Below are positions 2,584 through 29,673 of a DNA stretch of 64,000 bases, one piece after another. The position numbers and the translations under genes were made by a program. Positions within the stretch are counted from its first letter, which is position 1; every line of letters starts with the position of its first letter. The notes under the pieces were generated by a model. It had not been told where the DNA came from, ran no database searches, and saw only the letters and a program-made list of their open reading frames with translations. Source of the DNA: Acidimicrobiia bacterium (GTDB lineage: Bacteria; Actinomycetota; Acidimicrobiia; Spongiisociales; ZC4RG35); assembly GCA_041746105.1 (NCBI GenBank), contig JBGTHP010000025.1, positions 154,682 to 218,681 of the forward strand, written 5' to 3'.

Positions 2584-2586
2584 CTC

Positions 2587-5039: not shown

Positions 5040-5398
5040 GCAATCCCAACTTCTCGCGTATGGAGCGGGTGAACTCGATTGTCAAGGAAGTGGTCGCAGA
5101 AGAGGTGGAGAACCTCAAGGATCCCAGGCTCGAGATGGTCACCATCACCGGCGTCGATACTCATCCGAACCTGCGTGAGGCCACGGTGTATTTTTCGATG
5201 CTCGATCTCAGTCAGGTCGAGGGGGCGAGGGACGCGTTCGAAAAGGCAAGTCCCCGGTTGCGTAAGGTTCTCGGAGATCAGGTCAGGATGAAATACACCC
5301 CTGCCCTGCATTTTCAGGTCGATTCCGGCGTGACATCTGGGAACAGAATCGACATGATCCTGCGGACACTGGCGACGGGTGAGAGCGAGGAAGAGTGA
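5036..5398 (+). CDS. rbfA: ribosome-binding factor A
   Basis: Typical RbfA size and position downstream of infB. MERVNSIVKEVVAEEV motif. Confidence 0.85.
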   Translation: MSNPNFSRMERVNSIVKEVVAEEVENLKDPRLEMVTITGVDTHPNLREATVYFSMLDLSQVEGARDAFEKASPRLRKVLGDQVRMKYTPALHFQVDSGVTSGNRIDMILRTLATGESEEE

Positions 5399-8173: not shown

Positions 8174-8547
8174 CTCGGCACATTCATTCTGCCTCGCCAT
8201 TCGAATCCCGTTACGGGTTCAGCCGGGCCCTGCGAGAGGGGTCTCGGATCGAAGTTGCCGGCACCGCGCCCATCCCACAGGACGGGAGCACCGTGCCTCA
8301 GGCCGCTTTCGACCAAATGCTCCTTTGCGGGTCCATCGCGAAGGCAGCGATCGAAAGTCTGGGGGGTGGTCGCGTTATCCGCACGAGAATGTTCATCATC
8401 GATGCCGGCGATGCAGATGAGATCGGTCGCGCCCATCGCCAGCTTTTCGGCACCGACGATCCGGTGGCGACCATGGTTGTCGTCCGGGGTTTGCTCGACG
8501 CTTCCTGGAAGGTCGAAATCGAGGTTGAGGCGGTGGCCACCGACTGA
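8170..8547 (+). CDS. RidA/YjgF-family protein
   Basis: Size and hydrophobic core consistent with RidA. Stop/start overlap with ribF. Confidence 0.65.
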   Translation: MTRHIHSASPFESRYGFSRALREGSRIEVAGTAPIPQDGSTVPQAAFDQMLLCGSIAKAAIESLGGGRVIRTRMFIIDAGDADEIGRAHRQLFGTDDPVATMVVVRGLLDASWKVEIEVEAVATD

Positions 8548-11225: not shown

Positions 11226-13670
11226 GTGTCAGAAATCACGGTCAGCGGTGAAGTCGGCGGCAAACAGCTGTCATTCACCACCGGCAAGTTGGCCCTCCAG
11301 GCCGACGGCGCCGTAGTAGCCAGACTCAATGGCACCGAAATGTTGGTTACCGCAACGGCATCCAAGTCGCTCCGCGAAGGGATCGACTTTTTCCCTCTGA
11401 CGGTCGACTTTGAAGAGCGGATGTACGCCGTCGGAAGGATCCCTGGATCTTTCTTCCGTCGGGAGGGACGTCCCAGCGAACAAGCCATCCTCACCTGTCG
11501 CCTGGTCGACCGACCGCTGCGCCCCTCGTTCAAGGAGGGATACCGTTGCGAAACCCATGTGGTGATGACATCACTCTCGGTTGACCCGGAAAATCCGTTC
11601 GATGTGGTCGCGCTCAATGGCGCATCGGCCGCGTTGATGGTGTCACCGATCCCGTTCGAGGGTCCGATCGCCGGCATCCGCCTCGCGCTCAAGAATGGGG
11701 AGTGGGTTCCTTTCCCGACGCACGAGGATCTCGAGCAGTCTGTTTTCGAGCTCGTGGTTGCAGGTGGCAAGAACGATTCTGGCGGCGTGGACATCATCAT
11801 GGTGGAGGCCGGCTCCACCACTGAAGGATTGCGGCTGATCGCCGATGGCGCTCCCGCCTCGGACGAAGAGTCTGTGGCCACAGGACTCGAAGAGTCAAAG
11901 GCCTACATCTCCCAGATCATCGACCTCCAGCTCGAGCTGGCATCCAAGGTCGAGAAGAAGACAGTCGAATACCCGACTGCGATCGATTACACCGACGAGG
12001 TCTACAACAAGGTTCGCAGCGCGGCCGAGGGCCGTGTCACCGAGGCGATAAAAATCGCCGACAAACAACAGCGCAACGCAGCCCAGGATGCAGCCCAAGA
12101 GGGTGTGCTCTCCGAGCTCGGGTACACCGCAGAAGGCAGTGATCCCGCAGAAGCCGCGATGGCCAAACGAGCTTTCAAGTCCGTTGTGAAGGACATGATG
12201 CGAGCCAGGGTCGTGAACGACGGGATTCGCCTTGACGGCCGAGGCGCCGGTGACCTTCGCGAACTCACCTCTGAAGTCGGGGTTGTTGGTCGGGCCCACG
12301 GTTCTGGCCTCTTCCAGCGTGGCGAGACCCAGGTGCTCAACATCACCACTCTCGGCATGCTCAAGATGGAGCAGATGATCGACTCCCTCGCTCCCGAGGA
12401 GTCGAAGCGCTACATGCACCACTACAACTTCCCGCCCTTCTCGACGGGTGAGGTCGGATTCATGCGCGGCCCCAAGCGGCGCGAAATCGGCCACGGTGCT
12501 CTGGCAGAAAGAGCGGTTCATCCGACGATTCCGACACCGGAGCAGTTTCCCTACGCTCTGCGGCTCGTTTCGGAGGTTCTTTCCTCGAACGGGTCGACCT
12601 CGATGGCGTCGGTGTGTTCGTCGACGCTCTCTTTGATGGACGCAGGGGTGCCGATCATGGCTCCTGTAGCCGGGATCGCAATGGGACTGATCCATCGTGA
12701 TGGCAAGTACGTCACGTTGACCGACATCCTTGGAGCCGAGGATGCGCTCGGCGACATGGACTTCAAAGTGGCCGGAACCGCTGACGTGATCACCGCTCTG
12801 CAGATGGACACCAAGCTCCAGGGGCTTCCTTCCGACATCTTGTCGGGAGCACTGTCTCAGGCCAAGGAGGCACGACTCAAGATCCTCGAGGTCATGAAGT
12901 CGGCGATCGCAGAGCCCCGCAGTGAGCTGAATCCCCATGCGCCCCGGATCGAGGCGATCGAAATCCCCAAGGACAAGATCGGCGAAATCATCGGACCCAA
13001 GGGCAAGGTCATCCGCGAGATGGAGGAGCAGACGGGCGCCACCATCGAGATCGAGGAAGAGGGACAGATCGGGATCGTCCGCATCGCCTCCAACGACAAG
13101 GATGTGCTGGCCGCGGCCAAGGCAAGGGTCATGATGATCGCCTTCCCGCCAGAGGCCGAAGTCGGAAAGACGTACGACGGAACCGTCGTCAACATCACGA
13201 AGTTCGGCGCGTTCGTGAACATCCTTCCCGGACGGGATGGGTTGCTTCACATTTCCAAGATGGATCCGAACCGTCGAGTCGAAGCCGCCGAAGACTACGT
13301 GACGCTCGGAGACGTGATCAAGGTCTCGCTCGATTCCGTCGACCCCAAGACGGGCAAACTCTCGCTGGTTCTCGACCAGGAATTGCCGTACAACGGACCG
13401 CCAGAAGGTGAGCGTCGTCCATCGTCGAATGATGATCGCCGTGACGATCGCAGAGGCGGGGGCCGCGACGACCGCGGTGGGCGCGATCGTGATCGTGGTG
13501 GTGACCGCGGCGGCGACCGAGGTGGACGTGGTGGTGATCGTGGCGGCGACCGAGGTGGACGTGACCGCGATAGCGGCAATCGTCAACCACAGTCATCCGG
13601 CAATGACGCCGGCAACCGCAGGGTTGCGCCGTCCTTTGACGAGTCGTTTGACAGCAGCCCCCGCGGCTAA
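11226..13670 (+). CDS. pnp: polynucleotide phosphorylase, with Arg/Gly/Asp-rich C-terminal tail
   Basis: Two RNase PH domains, KH and S1 domains recognisable. GTG start. The last approximately 90 aa are an RD/RG low-complexity repeat. Confidence 0.95.
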   Translation: MSEITVSGEVGGKQLSFTTGKLALQADGAVVARLNGTEMLVTATASKSLREGIDFFPLTVDFEERMYAVGRIPGSFFRREGRPSEQAILTCRLVDRPLRPSFKEGYRCETHVVMTSLSVDPENPFDVVALNGASAALMVSPIPFEGPIAGIRLALKNGEWVPFPTHEDLEQSVFELVVAGGKNDSGGVDIIMVEAGSTTEGLRLIADGAPASDEESVATGLEESKAYISQIIDLQLELASKVEKKTVEYPTAIDYTDEVYNKVRSAAEGRVTEAIKIADKQQRNAAQDAAQEGVLSELGYTAEGSDPAEAAMAKRAFKSVVKDMMRARVVNDGIRLDGRGAGDLRELTSEVGVVGRAHGSGLFQRGETQVLNITTLGMLKMEQMIDSLAPEESKRYMHHYNFPPFSTGEVGFMRGPKRREIGHGALAERAVHPTIPTPEQFPYALRLVSEVLSSNGSTSMASVCSSTLSLMDAGVPIMAPVAGIAMGLIHRDGKYVTLTDILGAEDALGDMDFKVAGTADVITALQMDTKLQGLPSDILSGALSQAKEARLKILEVMKSAIAEPRSELNPHAPRIEAIEIPKDKIGEIIGPKGKVIREMEEQTGATIEIEEEGQIGIVRIASNDKDVLAAAKARVMMIAFPPEAEVGKTYDGTVVNITKFGAFVNILPGRDGLLHISKMDPNRRVEAAEDYVTLGDVIKVSLDSVDPKTGKLSLVLDQELPYNGPPEGERRPSSNDDRRDDRRGGGRDDRGGRDRDRGGDRGGDRGGRGGDRGGDRGGRDRDSGNRQPQSSGNDAGNRRVAPSFDESFDSSPRG

Positions 13671-14248: not shown

Positions 14249-14376
14249 CCTTCTGATCCACGACAAACAATTCCCGGATGGGGTGGGCCCCACGTGGACG
14301 GGATCAAGGAAGCTCGCGTTGGAGTGTGGTTCGAGGCGTCTCGCCGCAACCGGGCTGTTCTCCTAGCATCGATTCG

Positions 14377-15081
14377 ATGCGGGTCCTCATTCTTCAGCCG
14401 GACGAATACGAGTCGGCAGGTTCCATCGGCGAGGCCTTGGTTGCCGGTGGTGCGTCCCTCGACCACTTCGTCATCCAATCCGATTTCACCTCTCCTCCCG
14501 GCGACGTCGATTTCCCCGACCTGTCTGAGCACGATGTGATCGTTGTGATGGGGAGCCCCTGGTCGGTCTACGACGAGCGGATCGAAGGATGGGTGCAACC
14601 ATTGCTGGCTCATTTGCGGAAGGCGGTCGAAACCGACGTTCCGGTGCTCGGTATCTGTTTTGGGGCCCAGGCGCTGTCAGCAGCGTTTGGCGGAAAAGTT
14701 GAACGCGCCGGCGAGACCGAATTCGGCTGGTACGAACTCGAATCGGAGTCGTCGCTCTTGCGGGGGCCGTGGTTTGAGTTTCATCACGATGTGTTCTCGG
14801 TGCCAACCGGCGCAGAAGAGCTCGCCAGAACATCGGCCGGACCCCAGGTGTTTCGCCTTGGAAGGTCGCTTGCGGTCCAATTTCATCCTGAGCTGGGGCC
14901 GGAGCTTCTGGAGAAGTGGTACCAGTCAGGTGATGAGGGGCGTCTCCAGCGCTCCGGCCTTGACACCGTTTCGGTGATGGAGCAGACAAAGGCGTTCGAA
15001 TCCGAGTCCGCCGATCGCGCCGCCCGTTTGGTCGGCTGGTTCCTCGGAGATTTCGTGGGGGAACCGACCCGATCGGACTGA
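14377..15081 (+). CDS. class-I glutamine amidotransferase-like protein (GATase1 / peptidase C26; possible gamma-glutamyl-amide hydrolase)
   Basis: VLGICFGAQ nucleophile-elbow motif and C-terminal HPE. Internal ATG at 14377 (MRVLILQPDE) is preferred over the ORF start at 14278. Confidence 0.75.
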   Translation: MRVLILQPDEYESAGSIGEALVAGGASLDHFVIQSDFTSPPGDVDFPDLSEHDVIVVMGSPWSVYDERIEGWVQPLLAHLRKAVETDVPVLGICFGAQALSAAFGGKVERAGETEFGWYELESESSLLRGPWFEFHHDVFSVPTGAEELARTSAGPQVFRLGRSLAVQFHPELGPELLEKWYQSGDEGRLQRSGLDTVSVMEQTKAFESESADRAARLVGWFLGDFVGEPTRSD

Positions 15082-15108: not shown

Positions 15109-16023
15109 TCAGCCCCGGGGCGGTCTGATCCCCCGGAATTCCCAATCGCCGCCAAGTGCGGTCGACAAGACCTCCTCCGATTCAGATGGCTGGGCACCGA
15201 AGGTGTCCGGAATCGGATCCGAGCCCTGGACAACGGTGTTCGTCAACATCCCCAGTCCCTCCACCGCAACCGAAACCTCGTCACCCGGATTTACCGGGCG
15301 CGAGCCGGCCGGAGTGCCCGACAGAATGACGTCGCCTGGCATGAGGGTCATGGTGCGGGCCAGATCGGCCACGAGGTAATACATATCCCATTCCATCTCG
15401 GCAGTCGAGGCATCCTGGACTACCTCTCCGTTGACGGTGGTTCGAATCTTCTTGTTGTGGAAGTCCCAACCTTCGATCAACCCCGGACCAAGCGGGCAGA
15501 AGGTATCCGACCCCTTGACCCTGAGCATCGAGCCGGCGTCGGTGTCACGGAAATCGTGGAGGCCGTAGTCGTTGGCGATGGTGTAGCCGAGGATGTGAGT
15601 CTCAGCCTCGGCCGGAGTGACGCTACGAGTGGTGGATCCGATCACAATTGCGATTTCGCCTTCGTAGTTGAGGTATTTGCAGCCGGCGGGACGTACAACA
15701 TCGCCTCTGTGTCCGTTGAGGGCCGAGGTCGGCTTCTGGAAGTAGGTCGGTGCCGAAGGGAGCTTGGCTCCGAATTCCTCAACCCGGCTGCGGTAGTTGA
15801 GATGGATGGCGATGACCTTGGTCGGTTCGACCGGGGGCAGGTGGATGGCTTTCGCCACGTCTATGACTAGGCCTTCGGCAGTCTCGAAACGCTCGCCGCC
15901 TCCGACGAGCGTCACCGGGGAGCCGTTTAGCAGCACCCTCCGCGTTTCTTTCACCGGTCGACCGCCCTGATCATTCGGGCCCGAACGATAGCTGGTAGCG
16001 TCCACGTATGGCCGTGAGCTCAT
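15109..16023 (-). CDS. fumarylacetoacetate-hydrolase (FAH) family hydratase/decarboxylase
   Basis: Typical FAH-fold sequence (GEIAIVIG...ILGYTIANDY...DVILSGTPAG). Confidence 0.85.
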   Translation of the reverse strand: MSSRPYVDATSYRSGPNDQGGRPVKETRRVLLNGSPVTLVGGGERFETAEGLVIDVAKAIHLPPVEPTKVIAIHLNYRSRVEEFGAKLPSAPTYFQKPTSALNGHRGDVVRPAGCKYLNYEGEIAIVIGSTTRSVTPAEAETHILGYTIANDYGLHDFRDTDAGSMLRVKGSDTFCPLGPGLIEGWDFHNKKIRTTVNGEVVQDASTAEMEWDMYYLVADLARTMTLMPGDVILSGTPAGSRPVNPGDEVSVAVEGLGMLTNTVVQGSDPIPDTFGAQPSESEEVLSTALGGDWEFRGIRPPRG

Positions 16024-17267
16024 TGTTGGGCGATCGTGGTCCTGACTCGGCTGACATCACCGATCACGAGACCTATGTCCGCGGTGTTCCTTATGCCACC
16101 TTCGCCAAACTTGCGGGTAGCGGACCGGTGCTCCGGATTCATGAGTTCGATGGGGGTTGGCACTGGGGTGTCGTCGGCCACGCCGAGATTTCCGAGGTCG
16201 GGAGGGCCTGGGATCGGTTCACCACGACTCGCGGGATTCGCCTGGAGGAAATGGATGAAGAGGCCCTCCATCATCGACGCACGCTGATGGAACACGACCC
16301 ACCCAGCCACACCCGGCTGCGACGAATCCTGCAGGGTGGATTCACCCCCAGAGTTGTCGCGGGATTTGAAGCCGCCTTTCGTGCGCTCACAGGGTTTGTC
16401 CTCGATCCACTGATCATCGAAGGGCGCTTTGATTTCGCAGACAGAGTGGCAAGGGCCCTGCCTGTGCGGCTTCTGTGTCGACTTCTCGGCGTACCCGACG
16501 CAGACGCCGATTTGCTCGTTGGTTGGACCGACCGCCTTGTGTCGAATACCGATCCCGATTTCGTGGTGGGGCAGGACGCCGAAGGAGATTGGCGGCTGCT
16601 TCCGTTTCGGAGCCGGGCGGCGCTGGAGGTATTCCGATATGCGGAGGCTTGTGCGATGGCGCGCCGTGCCGATCCAGGCGACGACGTGGTATCACGGTTG
16701 CTTGGTGCCACCGTCGACGGTCACCCGCTCACCGATCTCGAGTTCAAGAACTTCTTCACGCTCCTCATGGTGGCCGGAAACGAGACGACTCGCCACGCCA
16801 TCAATCACGCCGTGAGTCTGTTGATCGACCACCCGGAACTCTTGGAAGAGGTCCCCCCTTCGTTCGGTTCTGAGGCAGTGGAGGAACTGCTCCGTGCCGC
16901 CTCCGTGACCATGCACTTCCGTCGGACCGCCACGGTTGACACCGAACTCGGGGGGCGAGCGATTCAGGCGGGGGACAAGGTGGTGATGTGGTACGTGGCG
17001 GCCAACGTTGCGCCAGAAGTCTTCGACGATCCCCATGTTTTGAGGATGGACCGTTCACCCAACCCACACTATGCGTTCGGGGTAGGACCCCACCATTGCC
17101 TGGGGGCATCGTTTGCTCGATTGGAATTGAGGGTCGTGATCGAGGAGTTGATTCGACGCGTTTCTGGTATCCGACTCGGAGGTGAGGTCGTTCGCCTTCG
17201 ATCGAATTTCCACAACGGGATCAAACACCTGCCGGTGGTCGTGATGGCACGGGGAGACGGTCAATAA
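16008..17267 (+). CDS. cytochrome P450
   Basis: Heme-binding loop FGVGPHHCLGASFARLE. ETTRH I-helix region. Approximately 419 aa. Confidence 0.85.
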   Translation: MAVSSLLGDRGPDSADITDHETYVRGVPYATFAKLAGSGPVLRIHEFDGGWHWGVVGHAEISEVGRAWDRFTTTRGIRLEEMDEEALHHRRTLMEHDPPSHTRLRRILQGGFTPRVVAGFEAAFRALTGFVLDPLIIEGRFDFADRVARALPVRLLCRLLGVPDADADLLVGWTDRLVSNTDPDFVVGQDAEGDWRLLPFRSRAALEVFRYAEACAMARRADPGDDVVSRLLGATVDGHPLTDLEFKNFFTLLMVAGNETTRHAINHAVSLLIDHPELLEEVPPSFGSEAVEELLRAASVTMHFRRTATVDTELGGRAIQAGDKVVMWYVAANVAPEVFDDPHVLRMDRSPNPHYAFGVGPHHCLGASFARLELRVVIEELIRRVSGIRLGGEVVRLRSNFHNGIKHLPVVVMARGDGQ

Positions 17268-17268
17268 C

Positions 17269-18063
17269 ATGTCCGGAATGGACGGTTTCCTTTTTCCTCG
17301 AACCGCTCGCGGTGAGAGTTCGCTGCTGCCTCCTCCACCGTGGCATTACTCGGGCGAAATGCTCACCGTCGAATACCGGACGGACCCTGTAAATATTCGA
17401 GCGCTGCTCCCCGATGGAGTTGAGCCCCTCGACGATGACCCTGGAGCGGTGGCGCTGATCTGGGCCGACTGGCAGAGTTGTTCCGACCGCTTCGACGAGA
17501 TTCTTGATCCAGTTCGCAGCCAGTACAAGGAGGCGTTCTTCGTTATCCGCTGTCGATATCAGGATCGGCCGTATTCCCGATGTCCATTGATCTGGGTGGA
17601 CAAGGACTTCGCCCTGGTCCGTGGATATCACCAGGGATATCCGAAGAAGCTCGGAGAAATCTGGATGACCCGACCGGTTTCGATCGGGCGCGCCGGACCC
17701 CGGCTGGAACCAGGCGGTCGCTTTGGCGCCACGCTGTCTTCAAATGGCCGCCGGCTGGCCGAGGCGCGTTTTTCGCTGGTTGAGCCCACCGATCGCCCTG
17801 GTTTCGTCAATGCCCATCCCATGCTCCACAACCGCTGGTTTCCGGCGATCGAATCGGACGGTTCCGACAGCGTCGACGAACTGGTGACGATGAGTGGGTA
17901 TGACGGCGCGATCGCCGACGTGTGGCGAGCGGATGCCGAGTTGGCCTTGGGAGCCAGCCCCACCGACGAGTTGGAGCTGCTCACTCCCATTGAGATCATT
18001 GGCGGGTTTTATCACAGAGTTGGTGTCTCGTGGCGTGCGGGCACCACGCTCGAACGCCGATGA
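17269..18063 (+). CDS. acetoacetate decarboxylase-like (ADC superfamily) protein
   Basis: N-terminal PPPWHYSGEML motif characteristic of the ADC-like family (MppR-like). Confidence 0.65.
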   Translation: MSGMDGFLFPRTARGESSLLPPPPWHYSGEMLTVEYRTDPVNIRALLPDGVEPLDDDPGAVALIWADWQSCSDRFDEILDPVRSQYKEAFFVIRCRYQDRPYSRCPLIWVDKDFALVRGYHQGYPKKLGEIWMTRPVSIGRAGPRLEPGGRFGATLSSNGRRLAEARFSLVEPTDRPGFVNAHPMLHNRWFPAIESDGSDSVDELVTMSGYDGAIADVWRADAELALGASPTDELELLTPIEIIGGFYHRVGVSWRAGTTLERR

Positions 18064-18542
18064 GCCAGGATCGCGATGATGACATTCGAAGGGTTGTGGG
18101 CGGCGGCCACGACTTCGAGTCGATGGCTGCGGTCCTCAATGTGTACCGGGCGGCGACCTCGATCCGAAATCAGATCGAGCGAAAACTCCTGAACCGCCAT
18201 GGGCTCAGTTGGGGAGGGTTCACCGCGCTGTTCGTGCTGTGGATCTGGGGGCCGATGGAGTCTCACCGCCTGGCCGACGAATGCGGCCTCGCCAAGGGAA
18301 CGCTCTCGGGCGTGTTGACCACCTTGGAACGACGAGACCTGATTCGACGAAACCGGCTCAGCTCCGATCGCCGGCGAGTCGAGGTCGTGGCCACCGGCGC
18401 CGGGCTCGAGTTGGTCAAGGCCGTCTACCCGGAATTCAACCGGCTCGAAACCGACGTGACATCGTCGTTGACGGGAGAAGAAAAACGTCTCCTTGCCGAC
18501 ATGTTGGGACGGCTCCGTCGAACCGCAGAAGGAATTGGTTGA
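18060..18542 (+). CDS. MarR-family transcriptional regulator
   Basis: Winged-helix region (GPMESHRLADECGLAKGTLSGVLTTLERRDLIRR...DRR). ATGA overlap with the upstream stop. Confidence 0.8.
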   Translation: MSQDRDDDIRRVVGGGHDFESMAAVLNVYRAATSIRNQIERKLLNRHGLSWGGFTALFVLWIWGPMESHRLADECGLAKGTLSGVLTTLERRDLIRRNRLSSDRRRVEVVATGAGLELVKAVYPEFNRLETDVTSSLTGEEKRLLADMLGRLRRTAEGIG

Positions 18543-18600
18543 CGGGACGATCGGTCACAACATATCGTTTGGGGCCGAATGATCGAGAGAGAGGACGGCT

Positions 18601-19476
18601 ATGGGTGAGATCGTCGGCGTCGGATTGGTCAGCCACGTGCCTACCACCATGCTGCCAGAGGCGACTCGCCTCGAGCTGAACGATGGCAAAGAACTGAGCT
18701 TCATTCCAGGCTATGCCAGGCTTCGTCGAGAGGTGCTCGATCCGCTCGAGGCCGACACGATCGTCATTTTCGACTCACACTGGTTCACAACTGTCGAGCA
18801 TGTCGTCTCTTCCCACGAACGACGAGCGGGGGTGTTTACCAGTTCGGAGCTCCCAAGGGGTATGGCCCAACTCACCTATGACTATCCGGGAGACCCAGAA
18901 CTCGGTCGGGCGGCGGCGCGGATCGGCGCCGAGCTTGGAACACCAACACATGCATCAGAAGATCCCTACCTGCCGGTCTACTACGCCACGACCAACCTCG
19001 TTCACTTTCTCCGCCGCGACGAACGAGTTGTTTCGGTGAGTGTGGTCCAAACCGGGGAGACCGAAGATTTTCTCACCATGGGCGCCGCAATCGGAGCGGC
19101 AGTGGCGGAGGTCGACCGGCGGGTAGTGCTCTTTGCCTCCGGAGGCATGAGTCACCGGTTCTGGCGGCTCAAGGAATTGGTCAAGCATGAAGCTTCTGAT
19201 CCGGTTCACATCACCTCGCCAGATGCCCGTGCCGCGGATCTCGAACGGATCGAATGGATGAAACAAGGACGCCACGACTTGATCATCGACGGAATGGACA
19301 ACTATCTCCGGCACCATCCTGAAGGTGACTTCGGGCACTACTTGATGATGGTTGGGGCGGTCGGCGGGAAAGCCTGTGTCGCCCCGGGACGTATGTATTC
19401 GGAGTATGAGAGCTCGGCGGGCACCGGGCAGGTCCACATGTGGTTCGACCGCCCGGATCGGGGTTGGAGCGGCTGA
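18601..19476 (+). CDS. class III extradiol ring-cleavage dioxygenase (LigB family)
   Basis: LigB-family features (VIFDSHWF...GGMSHRF). Approximately 290 aa. Confidence 0.8.
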   Translation: MGEIVGVGLVSHVPTTMLPEATRLELNDGKELSFIPGYARLRREVLDPLEADTIVIFDSHWFTTVEHVVSSHERRAGVFTSSELPRGMAQLTYDYPGDPELGRAAARIGAELGTPTHASEDPYLPVYYATTNLVHFLRRDERVVSVSVVQTGETEDFLTMGAAIGAAVAEVDRRVVLFASGGMSHRFWRLKELVKHEASDPVHITSPDARAADLERIEWMKQGRHDLIIDGMDNYLRHHPEGDFGHYLMMVGAVGGKACVAPGRMYSEYESSAGTGQVHMWFDRPDRGWSG

Positions 19477-19487: not shown

Positions 19488-20636
19488 TCAGCGCGAGCGG
19501 CCGGTGGGAGAGTCAGACATCGTCAGGGATTGTCGATTTTCGAGTGTGAATCTGTCCTCCGGCTTCCAGCGTCCCATCGCCATTCCGGCAACATATTCGC
19601 CAACCACCGGCGCATGCTTGAAGATCGAGCCCGAACCTCCCCCGGCAAAGATCACGTCCGGTTGCTCTGGATGAAAGTCCAGCAAGAAGTGGGTATCCGG
19701 GGTCATCACGATCTGGCACACCCTCTGGTCCATGATCGGTTGTTGCGCCAACTCCGGGAAGCGATATGAAAGGTACTGCCGGCTCCGGGTGAGGGCACCC
19801 TGGTCCACCACCCGGTCGTCGTTGTCGAGGTCGATGTCCGTTTCGTGCCACGCGATTACGGCCTTGAACCCGCATCCTTCGACATCCGGAATCCCGTAAC
19901 CGGGGTAGCCGTGATCGATCCAAACCGGATGGTTGTCGGCGTGATATCTGGTGCTACCCGGCGGGGGCGCGGTGTAGATCACGTCCTGGCGCACAACCCG
20001 CAGCACTCGTCCCAGGGTTTGTCGATACATCTGGCCCATCCATGCCCCAGTCGCCACCACCGTCCGATCCGCCTTCAGCGGCTCCCCGTCCAGTTGGAGT
20101 CTTTCTTTGGCGCCGGTGCTCGGTCGTCCCAGTCGGAACCGCCCTCCGAGTGTCTGATACTCCTCGAACGCCCTGACCAGCGCTCGTCGTGCCCAGATGA
20201 ATCCTGCCTCGGGTTCGAATATGGCGAACTCGACCCGCTGGAAGTTCATGTGCGGATAACGCTGTTCCAACTCGTCTCTGGCAAGGCGAAAAGCTGGTAT
20301 CCCGAGGCGTTCCAGCGTCGGCAGGGCTGCTGCTTCCCAGGCGGAATGGCCGGTGGCCGCCATCACCAGACCACCGGTCTGGCGGAAGAGTTCGGTGTTC
20401 CAGTCGCGACCCAATTCCAGCCAGCGTTGCCGCGACTCATACTGCCAGCGGGTATACAGCTCGTCTGCGCCGTGAGCAGACCGGGTCACCCGGTGATGAT
20501 CAGAGGAGGCCGCCCTGGCATGTCCCGGCTCCCAGCCGTCGTACAAAACAACGTCACACCCCTGTTTTCGCAGCTCCAATGCAGTCATCACGCCTACGAT
20601 GCCAGCACCGATTACGGCGTATCGAGTGGCGGTCAT
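19488..20636 (-). CDS. FAD-dependent oxidoreductase (DAO family; sarcosine-oxidase-beta / PuuB-like amine oxidase)
   Basis: N-terminal YAVIGAGIVGVMTALEL Rossmann (GxGxxG). Start taken at the internal M (MTATRY...). Confidence 0.8.
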   Translation of the reverse strand: MTATRYAVIGAGIVGVMTALELRKQGCDVVLYDGWEPGHARAASSDHHRVTRSAHGADELYTRWQYESRQRWLELGRDWNTELFRQTGGLVMAATGHSAWEAAALPTLERLGIPAFRLARDELEQRYPHMNFQRVEFAIFEPEAGFIWARRALVRAFEEYQTLGGRFRLGRPSTGAKERLQLDGEPLKADRTVVATGAWMGQMYRQTLGRVLRVVRQDVIYTAPPPGSTRYHADNHPVWIDHGYPGYGIPDVEGCGFKAVIAWHETDIDLDNDDRVVDQGALTRSRQYLSYRFPELAQQPIMDQRVCQIVMTPDTHFLLDFHPEQPDVIFAGGGSGSIFKHAPVVGEYVAGMAMGRWKPEDRFTLENRQSLTMSDSPTGRSR

Positions 20637-20669: not shown

Positions 20670-20683
20670 TACTGTATACAGAA
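20670..20683. promoter_or_regulatory. palindromic operator-like motif tACTGTATACAGaa (site 1 of 4) in the divergent promoter region between the FAD-oxidase gene and the GS-like/BMC operon
   Basis: Perfect 10-bp palindrome CTGTATACAG at 20672-20681. Related motifs at 34236, 36346 and 36858. Confidence 0.55.
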
Positions 20684-20722
20684 TAGCTAGGGTCGCGCCA
20701 GCACAACCGAGGAGGATCATTG

Positions 20723-22012
20723 ATGGCGGCGCTCGATGAGGGCATCACAACGGTGGTGATGGGGATTGGCGACCTCAACGGCATCCTCCGCGGCAAGCGC
20801 ATCCCGATCTCGCACTGGCCAACGATCCGCGAGGAGGGGATGGCGCTTTCCAACGCCATCTTCGCCATGGACATGAATTGTGACATCTGGGACACACCCT
20901 ACGCCAACATGGGGACCGGTTACCCCGATGTCAGGGTGTTCCCGCTTTCGGAGAAGCCCCACCTGATGCCCTGGGATCCCGGCGCGGCGTTTGTGATGGG
21001 AAGGGTCGAAAAAGAACACGGCGGCCCACTCGAGATCGACCCGCGCAACGCTTTGGTGAAGGTCACGGAGAAGGCCAGTTCCATGGGACTGAACGTACTG
21101 ATCGGGGCCGAGCTCGAGTTCTTTTTGCTCGATCCGGAAACCCTCCAACCCCGGGACAGCGGCATCCAGGTCTATGGGTTGGAGCGAGCGATGGAACTCG
21201 AACCCGTTCTGGGCCCGATTCGCGACCAGTTGGTGGCGGCGGGCATCCCGATCGAACAGTCCAATCCGGAATATGCTCCCGGCCAGGTCGAGGTGAACAT
21301 CCGGTACTCGGACGCCCTCGAAACCGCCGACAGGGTGGTGGCATTCCGTGGCATGGTCAAACAACTGGCCGTGACGCATGGGTATGTCGCCTCCTTCATG
21401 GCCAAACCGTTCTTCGAACACTCCGGAAACGGCTTCCATGTGCACCATTCGGCAACCGACGATTCGGGCAAGAATCTCTTTGCCTCGGGCGGCCATCTAT
21501 CGGACCTGGGGACGTCGTATCTCGCCGGGTTGCGCAAGCACATGATGGAACTGGCAGTGTTCTCGGCTCCCAACCCAAACGCCTACCGGCGCCGGCAGCC
21601 TTACACCTTTTGCCCGATCAACAACGCATGGGGAGTCGACAATCGTACGGTCGGCCTCCGGGTGATCGAAGGACCGGACAAGATCGTGCGTGTCGAGCAG
21701 CGAGACGCGTCAGCCGACGCCAACCCGTATCTTCTGCTCGCGGGCCAGATCGCCGCCGGTTTGGCCGGCATCGAGGGTGGCTGGGACCCGGGGCCGGCAG
21801 AGACAGGCGATGGATACGCCAACGAAGCTGCAGATCCGCTCCCGCTGGAGTTAGGCTCGGCTATCGCTCTCGCTCAAGACTCAAACCTGATCAAATCCGT
21901 GTTCGACCCTGATCTGTTGGGTATCTATCTCAGTCAGGCGGCGAGAGAGATCGAATTCATCGGTGCCCAGGTCACGCCGCTCGAGCGTGAACGTTATCTC
22001 CGGAGCTTCTGA
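20723..22012 (+). CDS. glutamine-synthetase-like gamma-glutamyl-amine ligase (GlnA3/GlnA4/PuuA/GmaS-like)
   Basis: GS catalytic motifs GAELEFFL, NPEYAPGQVEVN, SGNGFHVHHS, NPNAYRRR and NRTVGLRV. Approximately 430 aa. RBS GAGGAGGA 7 nt before the ATG. Confidence 0.85.
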   Translation: MAALDEGITTVVMGIGDLNGILRGKRIPISHWPTIREEGMALSNAIFAMDMNCDIWDTPYANMGTGYPDVRVFPLSEKPHLMPWDPGAAFVMGRVEKEHGGPLEIDPRNALVKVTEKASSMGLNVLIGAELEFFLLDPETLQPRDSGIQVYGLERAMELEPVLGPIRDQLVAAGIPIEQSNPEYAPGQVEVNIRYSDALETADRVVAFRGMVKQLAVTHGYVASFMAKPFFEHSGNGFHVHHSATDDSGKNLFASGGHLSDLGTSYLAGLRKHMMELAVFSAPNPNAYRRRQPYTFCPINNAWGVDNRTVGLRVIEGPDKIVRVEQRDASADANPYLLLAGQIAAGLAGIEGGWDPGPAETGDGYANEAADPLPLELGSAIALAQDSNLIKSVFDPDLLGIYLSQAAREIEFIGAQVTPLERERYLRSF

Positions 22013-22317
22013 TGAGATTGGCACGCGTCGTCGGTACGGTCACCGCAACCACCAAAGATCGGGCACTGGAAGGGCATCGGTTTCTGGTTGTCGACCTGGT
22101 CGACCCCGACGGTGTCGTCATCGACCCGCATCACGTTGCTGCGGATGCGGTAGGCGCCGGCACCGGCGACTTGGTCCTGGTGACTTCAGGGTCCTCGGCG
22201 AGGCAGGCACAGCGAACAGTCGCCCTTCCCGCGGATTTGGCCGTTGTCATGATCGTTGACGAGATCGCAATGAGCGGACAGGGTGAGGCTTTGTCCAAGC
22301 ACAAGAAAGGAAAATGA
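22012..22317 (+). CDS. bacterial microcompartment vertex protein BMC-P (EutN/CcmL/PduN family)
   Basis: MRLARVVGTVTATTKD...GHRFLVVDLVD...VAADAVGAGTGDLVLVTSGSSAR matches the EutN/PduN pattern. tgATG overlap with the upstream stop. Confidence 0.9.
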   Translation: MRLARVVGTVTATTKDRALEGHRFLVVDLVDPDGVVIDPHHVAADAVGAGTGDLVLVTSGSSARQAQRTVALPADLAVVMIVDEIAMSGQGEALSKHKKGK

Positions 22318-22320
22318 GTG

Positions 22321-22602
22321 ATGGCAGATCAGATTGCCCTGGGCATGATTGAGACGCGGGGGGTGGTGGCGTCGATCGAGGCCGCCGATGCGATGGTGAA
22401 AGCCGCAAACGTGGCACTCGTCGGGCAAGAAAAGGCGGGCGGCGGCCTGGTTGCCGTTTTTGTCCGCGGCGAAGTTGGAGCCGTCAAAGCGGCGGTGGAT
22501 GCCGGCGCAGTCGCTGCGAACAAGGTTGGCGAAGTGATAGCCGTTCACGTTATCCCGCGCCCGGCGACCGAGATCGAGGGCATCCTCCCTCAGACGTCTT
22601 GA
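22321..22602 (+). CDS. bacterial microcompartment shell hexamer protein BMC-H (PduA/EutM/CcmK-like)
   Basis: [58 protein letters not shown]...VHVIPRP is near-identical in pattern to PduA. Confidence 0.95.
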
Positions 22603-22610
22603 ACTGATCG

Positions 22611-23780
22611 ATGACGACCGCGGGTTTCCATGAGGCGGTTGCGGCGTTTTCTGCGCCGGTTTCGGCTCGCCCCGACCCCAGAACGCCGGCTCGGGTCACC
22701 GTGCTCGGCTCGGGGGTTGAGGGTCGCGCCCTCGCGGCATGGTTCCTGGCAGAAGGCGCAGACCAGGTCAGTCTCTTCTCGGTGTACCAAGATGAATTGA
22801 CGGCACTTGCCCGAGGATCGATCACTCTGCGCGGAGACGGGCCGGTGGGGACATTCCGAGTAGGGGGCGAGGCCCCGTCGATCGCGTCGACATCGGTTTT
22901 GGATCGGTCGGTGGAAGGTGCCGATCTGGTCGTGATTTCGGGCCCCGTGCTGAAACAACGGACCTATGGGCTGGTGGTCGCCCCTTACCTACACGACGGT
23001 CAAACAATCTTGGTGGTTCCTGGTCGGTCGCTGGCGGCCCTCGAACTCCTTCAATCGATCCGTGCCGGTGGCAGCACCGCCGATGTGCGCTTGGTGGAGG
23101 TCGATGATCTACCTTTTGACATCGGCGTCGATGGGTCGACTCTGACGTTGACCCGGCGCCGGACCGTCAGAGCCGGTGTCTACCCCGGCTCGGCCACATC
23201 GGTTCTAGAGGGTTTGCGTCGTTTTTTCCCGGAACTGGTTTCCGCCACGTCGGTCCTCGATTCGACCCTTGGCGACGGTTCGGGCATCGTCTCGATCCCG
23301 GCGCTCCTGGTGGGCGGACCCGGCGCACCACCCATCGAAAGTGCAGGACCTCCCGGTGCGGTGTTGCTGAACCCGAACACTTTCCGCGGGCTGATCGGGG
23401 ATGCCCAAATACAATTGGTGGCGGCGTTGGCAGACGAGCGCAGAGAAGTGGCGAGTCGCTTTGGGTTGCGTGCGCTCCCGAGCGACGAAGAATGGTTGGA
23501 TGCCGTGGCAGGCTCCACAGAGGGCACTGGAGTGCGAGCAGTCCCTGACGAAGCCACCGCCCGCAGTCTGCTTCGAGATGCGGTGCTCGGCTCCCTTGTC
23601 CCCTTGACGTCGATGGCGAACGCCGCCGGCGTCGCCGCCCCGGTCACGGAAGCCATGATCGAGTTGTCGGAGCGCGTTCTTGGGACCGCGCTGCGAGCCA
23701 GCGGCAGGAATCTGGATCTCTGCGGGCTAGGGGGCCTGAGTGCGCCCGAGATTCGGGCCCGGCTGGCGGTGGCGTCGTGA
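22611..23780 (+). CDS. NAD(P)-binding oxidoreductase, opine-dehydrogenase-like (Rossmann N-domain plus helical C-domain)
   Basis: VTVLGSGVEGRALAAWFLAEG dinucleotide motif resembles opine DH (VLGLGNGGHAFAAYLALKG). Approximately 389 aa. 8-nt gap after BMC-H. Family assignment is tentative. Confidence 0.5.
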   Translation: MTTAGFHEAVAAFSAPVSARPDPRTPARVTVLGSGVEGRALAAWFLAEGADQVSLFSVYQDELTALARGSITLRGDGPVGTFRVGGEAPSIASTSVLDRSVEGADLVVISGPVLKQRTYGLVVAPYLHDGQTILVVPGRSLAALELLQSIRAGGSTADVRLVEVDDLPFDIGVDGSTLTLTRRRTVRAGVYPGSATSVLEGLRRFFPELVSATSVLDSTLGDGSGIVSIPALLVGGPGAPPIESAGPPGAVLLNPNTFRGLIGDAQIQLVAALADERREVASRFGLRALPSDEEWLDAVAGSTEGTGVRAVPDEATARSLLRDAVLGSLVPLTSMANAAGVAAPVTEAMIELSERVLGTALRASGRNLDLCGLGGLSAPEIRARLAVAS

Positions 23781-25159
23781 CCGATGCCGACCTGAGAAGT
23801 ATCGCCCAGGCGCGGCGCGCAGTAGAGGCCGCCCATGTCGCCCAGCAGCGATTTCTTGCCACCGATCCGTCACGTATCGACGAGATCGTCGAGGCGATGG
23901 CGCGTGCGGTCGAGATCGACGCCGCCCGACTCGGCGCGCTCGCAGCCGAGGAGACCGGCTACGGCAACGCAGAGGACAAACGAATCAAGAACCTCTTCAA
24001 CTCGATCGGAGTCGCAGAGTGGCTGCGCAACGTCAAGACTCTTGGAGTCCTATGGCAAGACCCGGTTACAAAAGTGGTGGCGATAGGCGAACCGATGGGG
24101 GTAGTGGTCGCCCTAATCCCGGTAACCAACCCGACCTCGACCATCATCTTCAAAGTGCTGTCTGCGGTGAAAGCCGGCAATGCCATCGTGTGTGCACCAC
24201 ATCCACGCGGGGTCGGGTGCGGAATGGAAACCGTAAAAGTGATGATGACTGCGGCGGCCGAGCACGGGGCGCCGGACAACCTGATCCAATGTCTTTCCGA
24301 GGTGACCGTCGAGGGCACCCAGGAGCTGATGCGCCACCGCCGGACGTCGGTGGTCATGGCGACCGGGGGATCGGCGATGGTTCGAGCGGCCTATTCCTCC
24401 GGTAAACCGACCCTGGCGGTGGGCCCAGGGAACGTGCCCGTGTACGTCCATGCGTCGATGCGCGACGAGCTTCGCGAAGTCGCCGATCAAATCCTCACGT
24501 CCAAGTCGTTCGACTACGGCACGGCGTGCGCAGCGGAGCAGGCCGTGGTCGTCGACAGGGCCGTCGCCCCGCTGCTCGAACAGGAGGTCCGCCAATTGGG
24601 CGGCTACTTCTGCACGACGGGTGAGGCAGCCAGACTGGCCGATGTGATCTTTGACGACAACCAGGTGATCCGGCCTGGGGGAGTGGGGCAGTCGGCCTCC
24701 GAACTCTCTCGCAGGGCAGGTTTTGGAGTTCCCCCCAACACCCGTGTTCTCCTCGCCCGTGAGAGCGAGGTCGGACGAAACCGCCCACTCTCGCTCGAGA
24801 AACTGAATCCGGTGCTGGCCTGGTACGACGCCCCGAGTGAGGATCAGGCGTATGAACTGTGCTTCCAGATCTTGCGATTCGGCGGTAGGGGTCACACTTC
24901 GGCGATCCACACCAAAGATCCCGCCATTGTCGCCCGGTTTGGCCGCCTACCGGCAGGAAGGGTCCTGATCAACCAACCGGCGCTGATGGGGGCAATGGGA
25001 TACTCGGCCGACCTCGAACCGAGCTTCATGCTGGGCACGGGGACCGTATCTGGCTCGATCGTGTCAGACAATGTGACCGCCTTGCATCTGATCAACATCA
25101 AACGTGTCGCCTACGAGTCGAGACCGTGGCGCAGCATCTACGACGTATACGGAGCGTGA
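23777..25159 (+). CDS. CoA-acylating aldehyde dehydrogenase (EutE/PduP family)
   Basis: Approximately 460 aa with FDYGTACAAEQ active-site region (cf. FDNGxxCxSEQ). Lacks the ELGGKSP/GQxC motifs of hydrolytic ALDHs. Sits between shell genes. Confidence 0.85.
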   Translation: MTDADLRSIAQARRAVEAAHVAQQRFLATDPSRIDEIVEAMARAVEIDAARLGALAAEETGYGNAEDKRIKNLFNSIGVAEWLRNVKTLGVLWQDPVTKVVAIGEPMGVVVALIPVTNPTSTIIFKVLSAVKAGNAIVCAPHPRGVGCGMETVKVMMTAAAEHGAPDNLIQCLSEVTVEGTQELMRHRRTSVVMATGGSAMVRAAYSSGKPTLAVGPGNVPVYVHASMRDELREVADQILTSKSFDYGTACAAEQAVVVDRAVAPLLEQEVRQLGGYFCTTGEAARLADVIFDDNQVIRPGGVGQSASELSRRAGFGVPPNTRVLLARESEVGRNRPLSLEKLNPVLAWYDAPSEDQAYELCFQILRFGGRGHTSAIHTKDPAIVARFGRLPAGRVLINQPALMGAMGYSADLEPSFMLGTGTVSGSIVSDNVTALHLINIKRVAYESRPWRSIYDVYGA

Positions 25160-25161
25160 CC

Positions 25162-25791
25162 ATGAACCGACCTGGAACCGTGGTCAGAGCCCTGCTTCAG
25201 ATCGATCGACTTCAGCCAAAATTCGCCGCCTACAACGGTGCCACCGTTCAGGGGTCTATTCCCCTCGCCGGGGACACGATCCTCGTTGGCGAGATGGCGC
25301 CAGGCAACGAGGTGTTCAGATTGATCGACACCGCCTTGAAAGCAGCCACCATCGAGGCGACCAGCCAGATCGTGGAGCGCGAATTCGGGTTCTTCATCCT
25401 CCGATCACCCAGTAATGCGGAGATCAGCGCAGCCCGCGACGCGATTCTGGCCCATCTCGGGATCACGATGTCCGATCGGCTGAAACCGGTCGTGGAATCT
25501 ACCCAGATCATCACCTCGGTTGAGCCCTATCAGGCCCAACTTCTCAACAAATGGCGCAAAGGGTCCCTTCTGGTACCCGGCCAAACTCTCGGCATCGTCG
25601 AATGCGCTCCCGCTGCCTATATCTCGATAGCGGCCAACGAGGCCGAGAAGTCGGCCGATATCGACATCGTCGAGGTACGCGCGGTCGGCCGTTTCGGTCG
25701 ATTCTTCATGTCGGGATCGGAAGCGGCGGTTGAGACCGCAATGGAGGCGGCCGTCATCGCACTCCAAGCGGTAGAAGGAAGGGCCCAGTGA
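25162..25791 (+). CDS. tandem-domain BMC shell protein (BMC-T-like)
   Basis: Two approximately 90-aa BMC-like halves. The second half (TLGIVECAPAAYISIAANEAEKSADIDIVEV...GSEAAVETAMEAAV) is a clear BMC domain. Confidence 0.7.
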   Translation: MNRPGTVVRALLQIDRLQPKFAAYNGATVQGSIPLAGDTILVGEMAPGNEVFRLIDTALKAATIEATSQIVEREFGFFILRSPSNAEISAARDAILAHLGITMSDRLKPVVESTQIITSVEPYQAQLLNKWRKGSLLVPGQTLGIVECAPAAYISIAANEAEKSADIDIVEVRAVGRFGRFFMSGSEAAVETAMEAAVIALQAVEGRAQ

Positions 25792-27526: not shown

Positions 27527-27545
27527 TGAGAAAGCCGACGGCGCT

Positions 27546-28457: not shown

Positions 28458-28488
28458 TCGGACTGCCGGTCCGATTGGGTCGGATTCG

Positions 28489-29658: not shown

Positions 29659-29673
29659 CAATCCGGGTCCTGG

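Follow-up and report, generated by a model that had tools for sequence, protein, structure and literature searches.

The genome of the Acidimicrobiia bacterium represented by assembly GCA_041746105.1 raises the question of why genes for the cleavage of an aromatic ring lie directly against those for a bacterial microcompartment (BMC), as well as whether the two sets of genes work together. We analyzed a stretch of 64,000 nucleotides from this genome (contig JBGTHP010000025.1, positions 154,682 to 218,681; hereafter ‘the window’, with coordinates counted from its first nucleotide). The window has a G+C content of about 61%, and the closest homologues of its proteins are found in metagenome-assembled genomes (MAGs) of Acidimicrobiia. 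A previous sequence-only reading of the interval 15109-19476 had proposed that the lower part of a meta-cleavage pathway delivers acetaldehyde and pyruvate to the neighbouring compartment. Our analysis points, with modest confidence, to a different arrangement, in which a MarR-controlled module of the homoprotocatechuate (Hpa) type (15109-19476 together with 37603-40280) is accompanied by a separate amine-converting module, built around a BMC of the MIC2 type, that would act upstream of it.

All identities given here derive from homology and gene context in MAG-derived sequence. Approximately 55 open reading frames (ORFs) of the window were scanned with Pfam profiles, and NCBIfam models were scored against their curated equivalog cut-offs. 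The genes and sites of the ring-cleavage module are as follows:

14278-15081, + strand: hydrolase of the class-I glutamine amidotransferase/Peptidase_C26 type (GATase), candidate gamma-glutamyl-amide hydrolase (PF00117, E 2.6e-14; PF07722)
15109-16023, - strand: FAH-family enzyme of the HpcE/HpaG type, the decarboxylase/isomerase of the homoprotocatechuate pathway (PF01557, E 2.9e-58)
15970-15989: 20-bp palindrome ATCATTCGGGCCCGAACGAT, putative MarR site 1, in the divergent FAH/P450 promoter region
16008-17267, + strand: cytochrome P450 (P450a), candidate hydroxylase, heading a P450-ADC-MarR operon (PF00067, E 3.6e-22)
17269-18063, + strand: protein of the acetoacetate decarboxylase (ADC) superfamily, MppR/Sbi00515 (aldolase-dehydratase) group, proposed hydratase-aldolase (PF06314, E 7e-56, 189.8 bits)
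18060-18542 (alternative start 18030), + strand: MarR-family regulator whose start overlaps the ADC stop codon (PF01047, E 1.5e-11)
18564-18583: copy of the 20-bp palindrome with 2 mismatches, putative MarR site 2, just upstream of LigB
18601-19476, + strand: single-subunit LigB-type (class III) extradiol dioxygenase, HpaD-like (PF02900, E 6.7e-25)
37603-38826, - strand: second cytochrome P450 (P450b), 45% identical to P450a, abutting the next gene in the same direction (PF00067, E 1.3e-23)
38823-40280, - strand: NAD(P)-dependent aldehyde dehydrogenase (ALDH), HpaE-like (PF00171, E 1.9e-140)

All genes on which the earlier proposal was built are present, each with a significant match to its family, and the BMC operon beside them is real. 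The gene list was nevertheless incomplete, because both P450 genes, the one within the interval and the one at 37603-38826, had been overlooked. P450a, ADC and MarR are tightly packed, with a 1-bp gap followed by a 4-bp overlap, and LigB starts 58 bp further on.

The LigB-type protein matched PF02900 with 88.1 bits (gathering score 26.3) over residues 9-282 of 291, which amounts to a full-length match. Its sole NCBIfam match was HpaD_Fe (TIGR02298), with 138.1 bits against an equivalog cut-off of 315.95, so that we describe it as HpaD-like and not as an equivalog. The best PDB match was a 3,4-dihydroxyphenylacetate 2,3-dioxygenase (8iq8, E 1.1e-23), and in the alignment His12, His60, His185 and Glu241 stand opposite the same amino acids of that enzyme; these four residues are also invariant across 24 homologues, and by the LigAB numbering we take them to be the Fe(II) ligands (two His and one Glu) and the catalytic His. 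A non-aromatic role of the DOPA-dioxygenase type, which had also been raised for LigB, was rejected, since the corresponding PDB match is marginal (E 0.012).

The other components gave a similar picture. The FAH-family enzyme scored 192 bits against the C-terminal HpaG model (cut-off 276), its best PDB match was E. coli HpcE (1gtt, E 9e-64), and by these comparisons it is outside the 4-oxalocrotonate decarboxylase/hydratase (DmpH/DmpE) branch. The best match of the MarR-family regulator was HpaR (53.7 bits, cut-off 121). For the ALDH at 38823-40280, HpaE (474.9 bits, cut-off 638) ranked above the 2-hydroxymuconic semialdehyde dehydrogenase model. Homologues of HpaD, HpaE, HpaG and HpaR are thus the best matches of four components, all of them below the equivalog cut-offs. 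These results suggest that the flagged genes form a coherent, self-regulated extradiol (meta-cleavage-type) module for an aromatic substrate, as had been supposed, and that this module is closest to the Hpa (4-hydroxyphenylacetate) pathway (HpaD/E/F/G/H/I and HpaR) known from E. coli C/W and Klebsiella. The catechol/2-aminophenol lower pathway (DmpE/H/G/F, AmnC-F) that had been favoured does not fit, given the HpcE-type FAH enzyme, the Hpa-type best matches, the lack of a DmpG among the scanned ORFs, and the association of the RidA gene at 36426 with MIC2 loci that have no LigB.

A regulatory signal accompanies these genes. The 20-bp MarR-type palindrome occurs at the two sites listed above and nowhere else in the window, where 0.03 sites are expected by chance. 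Its spacer is 4 nt; a search with a 6-nt spacer gave 0 matches, and the sites were found with the exact sequence. In 11 related loci, LigB is preceded at a distance of 37-78 bp by an equivalent site (L005, L029, L036, L043, L051, L072, L074, L081, L136, L137 and L140; L numbers denote the loci of our surveys), and related palindromes occur between FAH and ADC in loci of Nitriliruptoria.

We also surveyed LigB homologues with 59-71% identity in reference genomes of Acidimicrobiia, Nitriliruptoria and Vicinamibacteria, which yielded 80 loci that were annotated by mapping the window proteins onto each of them. Around every homologue, in this survey and in that of MIC2 described below, the view was 10 kb to either side. 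The same genes cluster around LigB in all three lineages, which, together with the duplicated palindrome, shows that their grouping in the window exceeds chance. In 53 of the loci, the sequence reached 8 kb or more upstream of LigB; of these, 92% had ADC, 85% the HpaE-like ALDH, 53% MarR, 45% P450 and 36% FAH, and 8% had BMC genes. A pyridoxal phosphate (PLP)-dependent decarboxylase-family gene (PF00282) occurred in 66% and a glutamine synthetase (GS)-like ligase in 57%; with the GATase-type hydrolase of the relatives, these genes make the suggested connection to amines plausible. A typical order, represented by the complete chromosome of L002, is GATase-FAH-x-P450-PLP decarboxylase(-)-GS-ADC-ALDH(-)-MarR-LigB, and the compact order in Nitriliruptoria is GATase(-)-P450-GS-ALDH-FAH(-)-ADC-LigB. 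The ring-cleavage module is an old, self-standing cluster of Acidimicrobiia, Nitriliruptoria and Vicinamibacteria. The HpaE-like ALDH of the window is 72% identical to that of L002; its orthologue stands between ADC and MarR in LigB clusters without a BMC, whereas the gene of the window is found beyond the BMC block. P450a has homologues of 52-57% identity in LigB clusters, P450b is of the P450 type found in the LigB clusters of Nitriliruptoria, and a GATase homologue adjoins FAH in L002 and L136 and also occurs in the MIC2 loci L103, L097 and L142.

The PLP enzyme of the relatives is closest to aromatic amino-acid decarboxylases (tryptophan decarboxylase 4obu, E 4.6e-59). At the position of Tyr332 of DOPA decarboxylase, the enzyme of L002 (4382-5770, - strand) and its 30 orthologues have Ile in 28 of 31 cases, Phe in 2 and Pro in 1, and none has Tyr, whereas the equivalent of the small-loop His192 and the PLP lysine are invariant. 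In plants, a decarboxylase that loses the large-loop catalytic Tyr becomes an aromatic acetaldehyde synthase (bioRxiv 10.1101/404970), and the cluster enzyme may, judging from these residues, likewise be an aromatic acetaldehyde synthase instead of a plain decarboxylase. The presence of this enzyme in the clusters, together with their own GS-like ligase and GATase, suggests that the catechol of the relatives stems from an aromatic amino acid or amine (tyrosine, tyramine or dopamine, for example). In 17 loci, the PLP enzyme, ADC and LigB occur with no GS within 10 kb.

If the module is of the Hpa type, then which enzyme acts as the aldolase? No 4-hydroxy-2-oxovalerate aldolase had been recognized in the window before, and our scan of the approximately 55 ORFs agrees, since no aldolase of the DmpG/HpaI type was found among them. 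For this reason the ADC-like protein is the best candidate, and on the basis of homology it is likely the missing aldolase. It belongs to the aldolase-dehydratase branch and resembles MppR (4jm3, E 4.8e-57) and Sbi00515 (4zbo, E 2e-52; also 6eej) over its full length, and its Lys126 aligns with Lys156 of MppR, so that the Schiff-base lysine is kept; the score against the MppR equivalog model was 216 bits and thus below the cut-off of 380. Sbi00515 is an aldolase-dehydratase. Aldolase activity with pyruvate has been reported for MppR, and in S. solfataricus two ADC-like genes lie beside a catechol 2,3-dioxygenase gene and are induced by phenol (PMC7820114). MppR works in enduracididine biosynthesis, whereas the ADC-like gene of the window is locked to a ring-cleavage dioxygenase, a pairing that suggests a catabolic hydratase-aldolase role.

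Indirect support for such a role came from the relatives. In 16 LigB loci, ADC is followed by a second ALDH gene; these two ORFs share 4 bp in L009, where the ALDH belongs to the succinic semialdehyde dehydrogenase (SSADH) subfamily, with a score of 561.6 bits that is far above its other matches. This partner would be expected behind an Hpa-type aldolase that gives pyruvate and succinic semialdehyde, and not behind one that gives acetaldehyde, the terminal aldehyde of the sequence-only reading. We found no description of an ADC-family enzyme in place of HpaH/HpaI in the literature, which we covered incompletely.

Based on these results, we propose a scheme for the ring-cleavage module that homology supports moderately well. 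P450 would supply or complete the catechol, the HpaD-like LigB would open the ring, the HpaE-like ALDH would oxidize the ring-fission semialdehyde, and the HpcE-like FAH enzyme would decarboxylate and isomerize the product. The ADC-family enzyme, in place of HpaH/HpaI, would then carry out hydration and retro-aldol cleavage to pyruvate and succinic semialdehyde, and the 20-bp palindrome would mediate control of the module by MarR. The end products predicted in this way are those of the Hpa pathway. The differences are that an ADC-superfamily protein takes the place of HpaF/HpaH/HpaI, that P450s take the place of the HpaBC flavin hydroxylase, and that the relatives of the window add the PLP enzyme, the GS-like ligase and GATase.

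The second part of the question concerns the BMC locus, whose features are as follows:

19488-20636, - strand: monomeric-sarcosine-oxidase (MSOX)-like flavoenzyme of the DAO family, divergent from the GS-BMC operon (PF01266, E 8.1e-44; PDB 1el5 MSOX, E 1.5e-34)
20670-20683: GntR-type palindrome TACTGTATACAGAA (also written TACTGTATACAGWA; core CTGTATACAG), in the DAO/GS intergenic region
20720-30105, + strand: BMC operon of the MIC2 type
20720-22012, + strand: GS-like ligase, with structure matches including GmaS and NpaA1 (8wwu, among the top PDB matches)
22012-22317, + strand: BMC-P
22318-22602, + strand: BMC-H
22611-23780, + strand: opine dehydrogenase/6-phosphogluconate dehydrogenase (6PGDH)-like protein (best PDB match 1bg6, E 1.4e-16)
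23777-25159, + strand: acylating ALDH of the EutE/AdhE-N type (acetylating acetaldehyde dehydrogenase model, 480 bits)
25162-25791, + strand: BMC-T(dp)
25788-26999, + strand: malate dehydrogenase (MDH)-like protein with the fold of lactate dehydrogenase (LDH) and MDH and an N-terminal extension of about 100 residues
26999-27526, + strand: conserved ORF of 175 residues, coiled-coil-like, with no Pfam match (kept in L136, L137, L140, L083 and L085)
about 27540-28457, + strand: nitrilase (Nit6803-family-like)
28489-29658, + strand: Gfo/Idh/MocA oxidoreductase
29674-30105, + strand: HbpS/GlcG-like protein
31180-34255, - strand: MgsC/B/A-like proteins
34236-34249: copy of the GntR-type palindrome at the mgsA 5' end
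34878-36293, - strand: amino-acid/ethanolamine-type permease
36346-36359: copy of the GntR-type palindrome upstream of the permease
36426-36821, - strand: RidA (PF01042)
36823-37602, + strand: GntR/FCD regulator
36858-36871: copy of the GntR-type palindrome in the RidA/GntR region

The gene composition of 20720-26999 is that of the MIC2 type in the catalogue of Sutter et al. (2021), matched by description (PMC8217296). The catalogue gives no function for MIC2, and in its accessible passages it does not mention the MgsABC-like, sarcosine-oxidase-like, RidA, GntR or ring-cleavage genes. We surveyed MIC2 loci by scanning metagenomes with the BMC ALDH, to which the loci of the MDH-like homologues of Sulfitobacter aestuariivivens and an Immundisolibacterales MAG were added. 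The constant partners of MIC2 are the GS-like ligase, the divergent MSOX-like flavoenzyme, the MgsA/B/C-like proteins, GATase/Peptidase_C26, RidA, GntR and a transporter, and the same partners are found in marine Acidimicrobiia, Sulfitobacter and Immundisolibacterales. Wherever the upstream side of a MIC2 locus was covered, the MSOX-like gene adjoins GS, and the set of Mgs-like, permease, RidA and GntR genes also flanks MIC2 in L085, L087, L089, L095, L097, L099, L102 and L142. The BMC-T proteins of L136, L137 and L140 have the CsoS1D_N+BMC architecture.

The two proteobacterial loci, that of Sulfitobacter aestuariivivens (L142, JACTAG010000002.1) and that of the Immundisolibacterales MAG (L143), have the same MIC2 layout and partners, with genes for MgsABC-like proteins, GATase, DAO(-), GS, BMC-P, BMC-H, the 6PGDH-like protein, ALDH, BMC-T, the MDH-like protein, RidA and an ABC transporter. 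In marine MIC2 loci, a PuuD-like gene and a short-chain dehydrogenase/reductase gene lie just downstream of the MDH-like gene; the PuuD-like homologue of L089 (13239-14831, - strand), related to gamma-glutamyl-GABA hydrolase, scored 222 bits against a cut-off of 266. This homologue reinforces the gamma-glutamyl-amine theme of these loci.

The GntR-type palindrome gave 7 strand-matches at 4 sites in the window (0.00 expected by chance). Its site between DAO and GS is conserved in L136, L137, L140, L103, L087, L089, L097 and L102, and other Acidimicrobiia MIC2 loci carry the palindrome at places that correspond to those of the window. The palindrome thus seems to mark out the regulon of the orphan MIC2. 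The two modules of the window carry distinct operator sets and thus putatively constitute separate regulons.

With the NCBIfam subfamily model of malate dehydrogenase, the MDH-like protein scored 324.8 bits and so exceeded the cut-off of 283, whereas with that of L-LDH it reached 211 bits, below the cut-off of 304. The enzyme that had been called LDH-like is thus of the MDH family, and a sink for pyruvate is not indicated. A role of RidA as 2-aminomuconate deaminase was not borne out either, since the RidA gene at 36426 belongs to the MIC2/GntR set of loci without LigB and that at 8170-8547 (+ strand, PF01042) stands among the housekeeping genes truB/rpsO/pnp. The nitrilase ORF as called (27072-28457, + strand) has a long, basic, low-complexity N-terminus that is probably spurious, the true start being near 27540. 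The nitrilase, Gfo/Idh/MocA and HbpS-like genes had no match in the other MIC2 loci compared; the contigs of L136, L137 and L140 end just past the MDH-like gene. As a speculation, the nitrilase might feed arylacetonitriles into an arylacetate pathway. In the literature on BMCs of Acidimicrobiia, we found microcompartments named in reference lists only.

For the MIC2 module, the conserved gene context is consistent with a route in which an amine is imported and glutamylated to a gamma-glutamyl-amide, from which an N-alkylglutamate is formed. Oxidation of the latter by the MSOX-like enzyme would give an aldehyde, the acylating ALDH would trap the aldehyde, and the MDH-like and opine-dehydrogenase-like enzymes may recycle NAD+. 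This route resembles the N-methylglutamate pathway (GmaS, MgsABC and N-methylglutamate dehydrogenase) and the gamma-glutamylation routes (Puu/Pau, Ipu, GlnA4, AtdA1/NpaA1) in its GS-like ligase, GATase/GXGXG/FMN trio, sarcosine-oxidase-family flavoenzyme and Peptidase_C26-type hydrolase. It differs in that the window proteins score below the equivalog cut-offs, that a monomeric MSOX-like enzyme takes the place of MgdABCD, and that a BMC with an acylating ALDH is present.

We then asked how the two modules are connected. In L136, L137 and L140, which form one clade with the window (LigB 83-88% identical), FAH-(P450)-ADC-MarR-LigB lies directly against DAO-GS-BMC. In a second clade (L065, L067, L068, L069 and L101), the BMC operon is extended at its end by fusion with the genes for the HpaE-like ALDH and LigB: ALDH begins 13 bp behind the gene of the MDH-like protein, its stop and the start of LigB overlap, and ilvC is the next gene. 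The two clades are not sisters in the LigB tree, and their arrangements differ. Therefore, LigB genes of different origin were recruited to MIC2 at least two times, and the two juxtapositions are independent. In the window itself, MIC2-set genes lie on either side of the ring-cleavage block. No LigB, ADC or FAH was found within 10 kb in L087, L089, L095, L097, L099, L102, L103, L142 and L143. The link to the BMC that had been suspected thus has comparative support from the window clade and a second, non-sister clade, but not from most orthologous MIC2 loci. No description of an association between MIC2 and LigB was found in the literature, again with incomplete coverage. We consider it probable that the BMC and the ring-cleavage module are genuinely linked.

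The MIC2-joined LigB clusters also differ in gene content from the others. None of 8 joined clusters has the PLP enzyme, compared with 35 of 49 others (Fisher p 2e-4), although only two independent events underlie this contrast. No PLP decarboxylase-family gene was found in the window, and the sole GS-like gene there is the MIC2 paralogue; at 29% identity to the GS of LigB clusters, it was rejected as an orthologue of the latter. Given that the block of the window has neither its own ligase nor a PLP enzyme, a sequential relation to MIC2 is most likely. In such a relation, the two linked clades would obtain the aromatic acid or aldehyde that enters ring cleavage from the MIC2/amine module, which would replace the PLP-enzyme/GS route of relatives without a BMC. 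The BMC/amine module would stand upstream, producing the aldehyde or acid from an (aryl)alkylamine, and ring cleavage would follow downstream in the cytosol, where its enzymes are presumed to reside because none of them has a BMC-specific extension. Tyramine- or dopamine-type substrates would fit this coupling best, but the identity of the substrate, the flux direction between the modules and every enzymatic step are what we infer. In its most specific form, MIC2 would be an amine-oxidizing organelle that forms a toxic aldehyde through gamma-glutamyl-amide and N-alkylglutamate intermediates and that was wired to Hpa-type ring cleavage in two Acidimicrobiia lineages, so that the locus would catabolize a biogenic arylalkylamine (tyramine/dopamine type) via a compartmentalized arylacetaldehyde; we regard this version as a long shot. 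If it is true, then an ADC-superfamily hydratase-aldolase would replace HpaH/HpaI, and in the relatives without a BMC the Tyr-less PLP enzyme would function as an aromatic acetaldehyde synthase of bacteria.

The closest MIC2 relative, L103 (Ga0224510_10001167, 779-8229), occupies the same chromosomal site with the order PNPase-GATase-P450a(70%)-DAO-GS-BMC, where PNPase is polynucleotide phosphorylase. No FAH, ADC, MarR or LigB, nor remnants of them, were found between PNPase and DAO-GS-BMC. The ring-cleavage block was therefore either gained in the window clade or cleanly lost in L103.

Could the two modules simply be independent catabolic units that share a variable genomic island? This would agree with the L103 site, which has no ring-cleavage block, with the separate regulators and operators, and with the finding that a BMC is missing from 92% of LigB loci and LigB from most MIC2 loci. 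Such independence is nevertheless unlikely in our judgement, since two non-sister LigB lineages were joined to MIC2 in different ways, one of them by operon fusion with overlapping or abutting genes, and since the joined clusters lost their own GS-like and PLP genes. By our rough estimate, chance placement within 10 kb in a genome of 2.5-3 Mb would occur in fewer than 1% of lineages, and the module in the window is enclosed by MIC2-set genes with its own ALDH beyond the BMC block. The lower-pathway end-game of the sequence-only reading can also be adjusted, so that the ADC-type aldolase yields a 2-oxo acid and an aldehyde (succinic semialdehyde or acetaldehyde), the BMC ALDH converts the latter to succinyl- or acetyl-CoA, and the MDH-like and opine-dehydrogenase-like enzymes regenerate NAD+ within the shell. 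The acylating type of the BMC ALDH suits this model, as do the N-terminal extensions of the two NAD-dependent reductase-type enzymes and the co-transcription of ALDH and LigB with shell genes that is predicted from the operon layout of L065-type loci. In addition, ADC is followed by an SSADH-like gene in 16 relatives without a BMC but not in the window clade, where the position of an aldehyde consumer is thus vacant. When the co-occurrence of the flanking genes with the shell genes was checked, however, most orthologous BMC loci lacked them, the very outcome that the sequence-only reading had named as contradicting its end-game. At least nine other MIC2 lineages, including Proteobacteria, have no LigB/ADC/FAH within 10 kb but always have the GS, MSOX-like and Mgs-like genes, which already give a source of aldehyde. 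The fused operon of the L065 type carries no ADC/aldolase gene, the supposed LDH is of the MDH family while the Hpa route yields no oxaloacetate, and the operators in the window are separate. We thus hold even the adjusted end-game to be improbable.

A third explanation is a pathway of the aniline type, in which the GS-like enzyme makes a gamma-glutamyl-arylamide, P450 hydroxylates it in place of a Rieske dioxygenase, GATase hydrolyses the product and LigB cleaves catechol or 2-aminophenol. Of the models considered, this one stands nearer to the 2-aminophenol idea of the sequence-only reading. NpaA1 among the top PDB matches of the window GS and the compact Nitriliruptoria clusters, in which all of these genes are combined, speak for it. 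Yet LigB is a single gene and not an AmnAB-like alpha/beta pair, the FAH enzyme is of the HpcE type and not of the 4-oxalocrotonate decarboxylase/hydratase type, the ALDH matches HpaE best, and the SSADH-like partner of ADC fits a C7 chain of the Hpa type. The pairing of the PLP enzyme with GS points to an amine from an amino acid instead of aniline, the 17 loci with PLP enzyme, ADC and LigB manage without GS within 10 kb, and in the window, which has GS-like and GATase genes, P450s but no Rieske oxygenase were found. An aniline-type pathway consequently seems doubtful. The preferred reading, an Hpa-type module with a separate MIC2/amine module upstream, also has several observations to contend with. 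The combination of GS-like enzyme, GATase-like enzyme and oxygenase is the architecture of aniline/1-naphthylamine dioxygenase systems (PMC11335346), and the beta subunit of 2-aminophenol dioxygenase is the second-best PDB match of LigB. No HpaF isomerase, HpaH hydratase or HpaI (HpcH/HpaI-family) aldolase was found in the Pfam scan of the approximately 55 window ORFs, the aldolase role of the ADC-like protein is a prediction, and the substrate may differ from homoprotocatechuate because all key enzymes score below the equivalog cut-offs. P450a and GATase stay with MIC2 in L103 and may therefore belong to the amine module instead of ring cleavage. In the tree of the BMC ALDH, the two LigB-bearing MIC2 clades lie next to each other, so that part of the association may be inherited. 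The ring-cleavage enzymes, lacking BMC-specific extensions, give no direct sign of a physical association with the compartment. Finally, given the view of 10 kb to either side, MIC2 genomes with no adjacent LigB could have the cluster at another place, in which case the lower-pathway model would stay viable.

The locus can also be compared with a known BMC that is linked to ring cleavage. In the ARO type, which serves the meta-cleavage of 2-aminophenol/catechol in Micromonosporales, Pseudonocardiales and Streptosporangiales, a two-subunit AmnAB-type dioxygenase lies directly upstream of the shell genes, with an IclR regulator and with its own, remote shell-protein clades and its own ALDH type (Doron et al. 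2023, PMC10470539). Like the window, it is an actinobacterial BMC locus with genes for a pfam02900 ring-opening dioxygenase and a semialdehyde dehydrogenase (PMC10470539). We rejected membership of the window in this type, since its LigB is single, HpaD-like and convergent with DAO, its regulators are MarR and GntR with no IclR, its shell and core are of the MIC2 type, and its host belongs to Acidimicrobiia. The repeated attachment of LigB-type dioxygenase genes of the Hpa-type module to MIC2, in the window and in the second Acidimicrobiia clade, would be the second link between a BMC and aromatic ring cleavage, after ARO, with different shell and core types.

For MIC2 itself, the conserved partners and the shared GntR-type operator provide a first functional lead, namely the conversion of an amine to an aldehyde via an N-alkylglutamate. 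Cultured strains of Sulfitobacter and Ruegeria carry the same MIC2 locus, so that an experimental system is at hand. Uncultured Acidimicrobiia, Nitriliruptoria and Vicinamibacteria widely possess the LigB-ADC-ALDH cluster, which suggests that the homoprotocatechuate pathway has a variant in which the aldolase is of the ADC family, and this variant bears on the annotation of aromatic carbon turnover in soils and oceans.

Two further features of the window were noted. The polynucleotide phosphorylase encoded at 11226-13670 ends in a long repeat tail rich in Arg, Gly and Asp (GGDRGGRD...; window positions 13300-13670). In addition, a single ORF of 424 residues at 47564-48838 (- strand) combines an RNase H domain with a YpsA/SLOG-like domain.

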